Positions 751 to 1,120 of a stretch of 26,689 nt of DNA are shown here, piece by piece (position 1 is the first letter of the stretch; every line of letters starts with the position of its first letter). The translations under genes were made by a program, and so were the position numbers. This DNA is from Gammaproteobacteria bacterium. GTDB lineage: Bacteria; Pseudomonadota; Gammaproteobacteria; GCA-001735895. Location: positions 1-26,689 of the forward strand of contig JBNKUM010000053.1 in the NCBI GenBank assembly GCA_050298595.1. Reading direction: 5' to 3'. The notes beneath the pieces were generated by a model. That model ran no database searches. It saw only the letters and a program-made list of their open reading frames with translations, and had not been told where the DNA came from.

Positions 751-790
751 ATGCAGAAGGTAGGGCGAAGCAGGAGGCTAAAGCCAAGGA
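751..790. repeat. Partial REP-like interspersed repeat abutting the IS right end
   Basis: ATGCAGAAGGTAGGGCGAAGCAGGAGGCTAAAGCC shares ATGCAG...GCAGGAG with the element at 880-925 and interrupts intron-like sequence. Confidence 0.45.
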
Positions 791-1038
791 CATCGCTGTC
801 ACGTGCCAGCTCGTCCCGGATGTACCACACCTCAGATCCGGTTCCTGTACGTCGCCCCGCGATTTTGTCCTGGACTTGACCACCATGGATGGTGGAAATG
901 CAGGTTTTGCAGGAGCAAAAACCTGACCTCCAGACCTCTCCTCGTGATGACGCCCTTGCCCTTCTTCTAACCTTCGGCTCTGCGAATACCGGGTGAGGGG
1001 ACTATCACCTCTCTAGTTTCGTGCCATGCCCGGCACAC
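788..1038 (-). mobile_element. Group IIC intron, 5' end and domain I (partial, interrupted)
   Basis: Minus strand starts GTGTGCCGGGCATGGCAC (GUGYG 5' consensus). It continues with GGTGATAGTCCC, GCAAGGGCGTC..TCTGGAGG, GAACCGGATCTGAGG and GGACGAGCTGGCA..CGATGTCC blocks in the order seen in class C intron domain I. It begins directly after a stem-loop (attC). No RT ORF or domain V is in the window. Confidence 0.82.
880..925. repeat. REP-like double-hairpin element inside intron domain I
   Basis: CCACCAT-GG-ATGGTGG (880-895) is followed by CAGGTTTT-GCAGGAGCA-AAAACCTG (901-925), two adjacent hairpins. Confidence 0.65.
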
Positions 1039-1120
1039 ACGCTTTGTGTAACCGGCTGCCAAATGCTGCATAGCGAAGCGGCACAGCGTTTGGTAGTCCG
1101 AGTTTACACGATCGTTATGC
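1039..1120 (-). other. Integron attC site of cassette 2, R' core split by the intron
   Basis: Minus strand: R'' GCATAAC overlaps the arsM stop. Arms TGTAAACTCGGACTACCAAACGC and GCATTTGGCAGCCGGTTACA pair with extra bases on the left arm. The site ends GCGT| where GCGTTRRRY is expected. Confidence 0.88.

Follow-up and report, generated by a model that had tools for sequence, protein, structure and literature searches.

A four-layer nest of attC-like site, group IIC intron, hairpin repeats and IS1111-group insertion sequence in a probable decayed chromosomal integron of a gammaproteobacterium

How do mobile elements of four different kinds come to lie one within another, and did each of them use its predecessor as the target? 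This question is raised by the first 1120 nucleotides of a 26,689-nt stretch of DNA from a gammaproteobacterium (GenBank assembly GCA_050298595.1, contig JBNKUM010000053.1), which we refer to as the window. The window comprises all of contig C53, one of the 119 contigs of a draft genome rated 98.6% complete, and its position 1 is a contig end, not a biological boundary. A preliminary description of this DNA had proposed that an attC (integron recombination site) is split by a group IIC intron, the intron by palindromic repeats, and one of the repeats by an insertion sequence (IS) of the IS1111 type. We found all four features where it had placed them, on the minus strand, and the comparisons described below support the proposed order of nesting. 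The four-layer nest is real, and each of its layers is an already known kind of element or event. We consider it highly probable that positions 1-1120 are the right half of a mobile-element pile-up in a decayed chromosomal integron. The locus is a graveyard and not an active chain.

The intron starts at position 1038 of the minus strand with GTGTGCCGGGCATGG, and its 5' end, GTGTG, fits the class C criterion GUGYG. A scan of the whole window with Rfam at gathering thresholds gave no matches. In a permissive scan, we observed one match to group-II-D1D4-3 (RF02001) at 951-718 (23.1 bits, E 0.053), in which the alignment was poor beyond approximately position 790; the score lies below the gathering score of 32, which counts against the identification. 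Because this support from the window itself is weak, the identity of the intron rests chiefly on comparison with its relatives. The same intron 5' end is present at four places in the genome, the window included, the others being C75:90219, C9:4323 and C118:67702, and the window sequence is 86.8% identical to the C75 copy over 281 nt, 85.4% to the C9 copy over 280 nt and 86.8% to the C118 copy over 114 nt. Matches to RF02001 exceeded the gathering score in the homologous copies of C75 (67.9 bits), C74 (71.3 bits) and C9 (42.5 bits). The C75 copy is full length (90219-92203) and includes matches to RF01998 (53.8 bits), RVT_1 (122 bits) and GIIM, with a broken open reading frame (ORF); its domains V-VI match RF00029 with 24.3 bits (gathering score 40). 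The window copy has neither domains V-VI nor the reverse transcriptase (RT)/maturase; it is truncated to the 3' side and is a dead 5' fragment with about 250 nt of intron sequence. When relatives were searched for intact copies of this intron, intron A, the 61 genomes (this one included) yielded only fragments and repeat-only matches.

Class C introns encode an RT/maturase that lacks an endonuclease domain and insert immediately behind a stem-loop, with no more than a short intron-binding site 1 (IBS1). In the nine aligned intron 5' flanks, a palindromic stretch was present in every case and a GT end in 8 of the 9. Also, the part of domain I that separates the two repeats contains a hairpin whose loop, GCACGTGA at approximately 807-800, does not vary among the window, C75, C9 and the introns of plasmids pPp47 and pR148 described next; this loop is likely to be exon-binding site 1 (EBS1). 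The preliminary description had expected EBS1 to lie beyond the IS; the likely loop is already contained in the retained fragment.

The same description had guessed that the intron splits the R' core of the attC as GT|TRRRY. The 3' junction is missing from the window copy; intact relatives, when their exons are joined, restore GTTAGAT or GTTATAC, as the guess demands. For C75, the joined exons read ...TCGT|TATAC, and the intron follows the first cassette ORF in the same direction, with a full-length, divergent integrase gene, intI (~374 bits), at a distance of 1.5 kb. The closest plasmid-borne relative of the C75 RT, 73.8% identical to it, is encoded by pPp47 (NZ_MG516912.1). The pPp47 intron is intact (1840 nt, with an ORF of 441 aa). 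Its host is a class 1 integron, where it has the sense orientation and interrupts the aac(6')-Ib4 attC after ...TCAAACGT and before TAGATGC (...AAACGT|TAGATGC). In pR148 (NC_019380.1) and 7 similar plasmids, the intron is found at ...CAAGCGT|TAGATGC of the aadA1 attC. The ...GCGT|T junction seen in the window recurs in the genuine attC sites of aadA1 and of aac(6')-Ib4. The window intron itself reads the same way as the adjacent gene arsM, and the intI remnant of the window is divergent.

These observations set the intron apart from the group IIC-attC introns in the form in which they are usually described. According to PMC3001079 and PMC7923331, such introns use the attC stem-loop in place of intron-binding site 2 (IBS2) and insert at the GT/T step of the core site; the canonical ones enter at R'' (TTGT/T) of the bottom strand and run antisense to the cassettes. 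The window intron resembles those examples (S.ma.I2, Kl.pn.I3), as they are portrayed there, in being of class C, in its apparent use of an attC-like stem-loop and in the GT/T step. In contrast to them, it occupies the top strand at R' and is sense, both in the window and in C75, and thus departs from the canonical definition. The introns of pPp47 and pR148 share with the window copy the 5' end GTGTGCCGGGCATGGCAC..., the insertion point in the top strand (GT|T of R'), the sense orientation to the cassettes and the same likely EBS1 loop. They differ from it in that the window copy is a dead fragment in a decayed chromosomal integron of an environmental bacterium and carries two hairpin repeats. 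The window intron is of this top-strand kind and matches an under-described clade of sense-oriented group IIC introns at the R' core. One "unusual" top-strand case in Enterobacter cloacae is mentioned in PMC7923331 (Rodriguez-Martinez et al. 2012), and the intron concerned may be a member of the same clade as those of pPp47 and pR148.

Domain I of the window intron is interrupted at two sites, both of which are located in single-stranded linkers of the Rfam consensus structure. The first interruption, a 49-nt double hairpin (DH), is exactly the stretch that cmscan left unaligned in the window; it folds with -13.5 kcal/mol (z -5.46), and none of 200 shuffled sequences folded as well. The second, rep2, resembles a repetitive extragenic palindrome (REP). 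In the window it is cut within its terminal palindrome, CTGCAT|CCATGCAG, and the intact C75 copy shows it as an insertion of about 50 nt relative to the RF02001 model and to the pPp47 and pR148 introns. The introns of the two plasmids lack both repeats and so present clean empty sites. In the alignment of the C75 and pPp47 introns, 1472 of 1837 aligned bases are identical (80.1%) and C75 has exactly three large insertions, which follow reference positions 111 (49 nt), 201 (48 nt) and 1478 (49 nt); the last is within the RT ORF. In alignment A1, the first two of these are present in the window, C75 and C9 and absent from pPp47. The insertion in the RT ORF is a second DH (C75:91795-91843; L009 5795-5843) that separates the W codon from the K codon in the maturase sequence GW|KAYF and shifts the RT frame; it is flanked by GGA^AAG, similar to GGA^AGT at the domain I site.

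The family to which rep2 belongs is dispersed and not specific to introns, with 15 BLAST matches in the genome at E<=0.01. A related family of 47-nt repeats, unit47, gave 82 BLAST matches, often in head-to-tail arrays, on contigs C49, C17, C30, C32, C40, C51, C56, C114 and others; some units are 100% identical across contigs, and repeats related to unit47 are widespread in the same genus and family. The hairpins of both families are weak (z -1.24 for rep2 and -1.00 for unit47). These repeats are like the REP repeats and bacterial interspersed mosaic elements (BIMEs) in being 47-51 nt long, hairpin-forming, multi-copy, often tandem and targets of IS elements. They are unlike them in that two of the repeats reside inside a ribozyme, in the weakness of the rep2 and unit47 hairpins, and in that they do not flank any of the examined genes for a Y1 or REP-associated tyrosine transposase (RAYT). 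For this last point, we used 26 matches to Y1_Tnp, several of them in open frames of 200-290 aa, and examined 23 places after dropping C101:169150, C8:200411 and C71:19877, which are second fragments of loci already listed. None of the 23 had unit47 or rep2 within 1.2 kb, and the one that had a DH owed it to the neighbouring C74 intron. In a separate observation, the summed depth of metagenome contigs over positions 881-924 was ~700 in runs X1 and X2, against ~50 alongside; by this measure, the DH is very abundant in those samples, whereas this genome holds only 7 copies.

The fourth layer is the IS that cuts rep2. Its left end was predicted to lie to the left of the window, together with the other half of rep2, and both were found on contig C108, of which positions 1-141 are the exact reverse complement of window positions 1-141. 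One common metagenome assembler has 141 as its largest default k, and overlaps of this kind would thereby be explained. The N-terminal 238 residues of the transposase are encoded at C108:1-714 on the minus strand (PF01548 DEDD_Tnp_IS110, 65 bits), and when read across the overlap, the IS is 1398 bp long with a 338-aa DEDD (RuvC-like) transposase. Elements of the IS1111 group are recognized, in PMC11187229 and PMC12288879, by subterminal inverted repeats (IRs) and a non-coding region that is longer downstream than upstream of tnp, which encodes the transposase. The IS carries PF01548 and PF02371, subterminal IRs of 14 bp, and 93 nt upstream versus 288 nt downstream of tnp, as in that group. Across the left junction the sequence is ...CTGCATGG ATG | GATAATGG..., and across the right one it is ...CCATAT ATG CAGAAGG. 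The flanks, ...ACGACTGCATGG ATG | IS | ATG CAGAAGG..., rebuild upon joining the rep2 palindrome that is intact in C75, and the agreement of the window and of C9 with C75 ends with ...CTGCAT at 751/750. The transposase is at most 53.7% identical to that of any plasmid-borne relative, and the IS would therefore be new.

The position of other copies points to a preference of this IS for a particular structure. On C9, the same junction is followed by an IS remnant that is 91% identical over the 463..750 stretch; on C97, a related remnant follows ...CTCCTATGCAT in a related repeat; and in run X5, which comes from another study, a 98%-like IS matches the window through 753 and then diverges into a unit47-like repeat. 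The copies of C53, C9, C97 and X5 all lie in such palindromes, and it is therefore the palindromes of this family that the IS targets, REP being the corresponding target of ISPa11. As described in PMC11187229 and PMC12288879, ISPa11 (REP), ISKpn4 (attC) and the IS110-group elements ISPpu9 and ISPpu10 (REP) share with the window IS a DEDD transposase, subterminal IRs, a long region downstream of tnp and a palindromic-repeat target; the window IS differs from them, as described there, in that its target is a palindrome of a different repeat family and its guide pairing is putative. Two observations weigh against this account of the IS. In this group, a seekRNA has short matches to both target strands; here the 6-mers shared by its non-coding ends and the target are CTGCAT and two that overlap the junctions, CTGCAT alone lies in the 3' region, and it is not conserved in C9. 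C9 and C53 share the rep2 variant TTCTGCAT, and their IS insertions may stem from one event followed by recombination. The C9 intron body is closer to C75 and the C9 repeat slightly closer to C53, so that either two separate insertions or one that was spread by recombination could account for the two copies. Related IS copies were found in 3 of 40 relatives (4 of 41 with this genome), mostly cut at contig ends. The preliminary description had spoken of a chain of structure- or RNA-guided elements. For the IS, guidance by RNA is suggested by its membership in the IS1111 group, and the search for a guide match gave the one unconserved 6-mer. A loose end, AAGACGACTGCATGG, at position 751 in run X2 may be an empty site or another copy of rep2, and we draw nothing from it.

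Leftward from the IS, C108 continues with the 13-nt remainder of rep2, a 47-nt unit (C108:857-808) and then 400 nt from the 5' end of another group II intron, intron B (C108:1258->860), which begins GTGTGCCCGGCATGGGCAC and matches RF02001 with 31.2 bits. Intron B points toward the IS, opposite to the window intron, and lies behind a hairpin downstream of a DbpA-type helicase gene; it carries a DH of its own, the first stem of which shows compensatory changes. The preliminary description had predicted that the rest of the window intron, with its EBS1, RT ORF and domains V-VI, would lie beyond the IS. This was not borne out: in its place C108 has another intron in the inverted direction, and BLAST of the full C75 intron against the assembly found no second copy of the 3' part. 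On these two grounds, the window intron is a 3'-truncated remnant. We also noted a copy of intron B on C66 (95% identical over 185 nt), and that the hairpin flank before intron B (~C108:1256-1333) is a small repeat with 80-89% matches on C102, C62, C100 and C93. A third group II intron, which begins GTGCGACCGGC at approximately position 1757 of the 3753-nt contig C13, has an open 474-aa RT frame with GIIM and lies behind a TAAC...-type palindrome, with an apparent cassette array on the other strand; it may be the only intact intron in the assembly.

The coordinates of the window features discussed in this report are collected in Table 1.

Table 1. Features of the window, listed in order of position
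Feature	Position	Strand	Basis
IS transposase gene, 3' part, 153 codons, open at contig start	1..462	+	PF02371 Transposase_20, 72.2 bits
IS right non-coding region, 288 nt, expected seekRNA/bridge RNA site	463..750	+	longer than the 93 nt upstream of tnp
Right subterminal IR, 14 bp	736-749	.	matched 14/14 at left IS end on C108
ATG at both IS junctions, shared core or 3-bp duplication	751..753	.	junction reading
rep2, first 36 nt of ~50-nt REP-like element	751..786	-	intact copy in C75; cut by IS
Domain I segment between both repeats	787..876	-	aligns well to RF02001 positions 27-112
DH, 49 nt, in single-stranded linker of domain I	925->877	-	fold; absent at site in C118, pPp47, pR148
Intron start (GTGTG...) with the initial part of domain I	926..1038	-	aligns with C75, C9, C118, G001, G010 and pPp47 intron
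attC-like site, 82 nt, R' core without final 5 nt	1120->1039	-	motif, context, long imperfect hairpin
Arsenite methyltransferase gene (arsM), last gene before attC-like site	1115..2020	-	NF008823, 342.5 bits (cut-off 263)
SigZ-type extracytoplasmic function (ECF) sigma factor gene	2120..2668	-	NF007215, 220.4 bits (cut-off 212)
Integron integrase remnant, 82 codons, N-terminal part only	3534..3782	+	TIGR02249 positions 1-65, 53.1 bits; PF13495, 68.1 bits

Three points of this account could be read differently, and we have weighed the alternatives against the same body of evidence. The hairpin before the intron might be an ordinary stem-loop, such as a terminator or a REP-like element, that served generic group IIC homing; the nest would then have three levels. 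A number of observations speak for this and against the attC assignment. The truncated site folds with a z of only -1.19, and 29 of 200 shuffled sequences folded equally well. A strict R''/R' scan of window positions 1-8000, which demanded a complementary pair, paired ends and a stable fold, found nothing, although a site whose R' is cut by an intron is for that reason invisible to such a scan. The neighbouring candidate attC (2835-2685), taken from the ~150 nt between the first ORF and sigZ, formed no hairpin in either a long (z +1.02) or a short version (z -0.33). The window integrase is an 82-codon remnant. No integrase profile match was found on the five intron-bearing contigs C9, C118, C74, C66 and C108, and some of the other intron sites are on this account perhaps plain stem-loops or orphan attC sites. 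The 5' flank of intron B belongs to the small repeat family with matches on four other contigs. Yet two intact relatives split textbook attC sites, again at the GT|T of R', and the C75 copy lies in a first cassette adjoining a full intI. The window site itself has its R'' box, GCATAAC, at 1120-1114, overlapping the TAA stop codon of arsM, and an L-box-like pairing, GTGTAA/TTACAC; its 3' end is ...AAAGCGT, with the GT at 1040-1039, and shares AAGCGT with the aadA1 attC, the 5' exon in full being ...CAAAGCGT. Its length of 82+5 nt falls within the attC range of ~57-141 nt. That motif and context carry the attC assignment more than thermodynamics counts against it. We judge an ordinary stem-loop to be unlikely and retain the attC-like site as the first level of the nest.

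A different objection would be that the DH is a native, lineage-specific expansion of domain I and not an inserted repeat. Consistent with this, all 7 BLAST matches to the DH in the genome are in intron sequence, 6 of them at one domain I site in three diverged intron lineages and 1 in an RT ORF. However, C118, for all its 96.6% identity to C75 over 116 nt, has no DH, and neither plasmid intron has one; contigs from intron relatives in the metagenome runs X1 and X6 (two studies) also lack it. The DH is far better conserved than the adjacent intron sequence, the further copy in C75 breaks the RT frame, and in related genomes it occurs also where no group II model matches, for example at the G021 locus (E<=0.01). 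A native expansion thus appears improbable to us. As for the missing 3' part of the intron, the adjacency of C108 and C53 was deduced from the 141-nt overlap, with no spanning read, and the Logan contigs are short, none of them spanning window positions 1-1300; these circumstances weigh against our placement of intron B. The draft consists of 119 contigs, and the two concerned break inside the IS; the overlap could join two different IS copies, and the remainder of the window intron would then indeed lie beyond the IS, its true left neighbour being unassembled or binned elsewhere. Against such a false join, no other contig shares the stretch at >90% identity, the transposase frame runs through the overlap, the IRs match at 14 of 14 positions, rep2 is completed by exactly 13 nt from the C108 flank, and there is no second 3' part in a nearly complete genome. 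We regard two separate IS copies as very unlikely, and the truncation of the intron next to an inverted intron B as the preferred reading.

A further suggestion is that the DH might be a miniature element that specifically parasitises group IIC introns, inserting at a GGA^AG step in a domain I linker and once in an RT gene, tolerated by the ribozyme and spread by intron retrohoming. On this view, the intron lineage with both the DH and the REP-like repeat went on to home into three or more different attC-like sites. We put this forward tentatively and think it, on the whole, doubtful. If it were true, the DH would be a mobile element whose niche is the RNA scaffold of another mobile element.

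The order in which the layers were assembled can be partly reconstructed. The preliminary description had each element using the previous one as its target. The nesting is supported, and the statement on targets has to be qualified, as the rep2 family is not specific to introns and the repeats are shared by three copies. In C53, C75 and C9, both repeats occupy the same positions although the 5' flank is different in each, and the repeats were on this evidence most likely acquired before the present intron copy entered this attC. We propose that the attC-like site after arsM was entered by an intron of the top-strand attC clade, through reverse splicing into the GT|T step of its R' core; the lineage of this intron would by then have borne both repeats (the 49-nt DH and the ~50-nt REP-like member), each in a single-stranded linker of domain I. 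Recognition of the target would have involved the attC stem-loop and an IBS1 of 3-4 nt (NCGT) paired to the invariant loop ACG(U), and entry into the top strand at R' would have left the intron in the orientation of the cassette genes. Later, the 1.4-kb IS1111-group element would have entered the terminal palindrome of rep2 (CTGCATGG-ATG-CAG), elements of this group choosing such sites by means of an RNA from the 3' non-coding region. Finally, a rearrangement at the repeat array may have eliminated the remainder of the intron and brought the locus into head-to-head contact with the 5' fragment of the other intron.

With regard to the setting of the nest, the integrase remnant of the window is divergent from the cassette-like genes sigZ and arsM and lies 2.4 kb from the attC-like site. 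We found 17 integron integrase matches in the genome, 3 of them above the cut-off, of which one is that of C75. There are several integron loci in this genome, namely those of C89 (a full-length integrase at 72502-73446, 466 bits), C99 (a broken integrase at 136-1020) and C75, and the remnant in the window. Core-like GTTATGC motifs are present on the minus strand at the proposed cassette boundaries, at 3265-3259 and 2691-2685. By reading, there is no attC-like site between sigZ and arsM; the array may be degenerate, or sigZ-arsM may be no true cassette. BLAST of five attC-like 5' flanks against the genome revealed no common attC family, each flank matching itself and at most one short sequence.

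The accepted workings of the four types of element are left unchanged by these observations. The locus preserves, in compact natural form, a record of stacking among structure-seeking mobile elements: the intron reads a folded recombination site, hairpin repeats occupy the linkers of the intron, and the IS, probably guided by RNA, reads one of the hairpins. Foreign hairpins amounting to ~100 nt of domain I are common to three intron copies in different sites, which suggests that the ribozyme remained mobile with this load. Introns in the sense orientation on the top strand of attC, which the literature consulted treats as a single oddity, form a clade that spans plasmids with clinical class 1 integrons and the chromosomal integron of an environmental bacterium. 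An intron in this orientation can be spliced from the cassette transcript, which matters for the expression of the cassettes.

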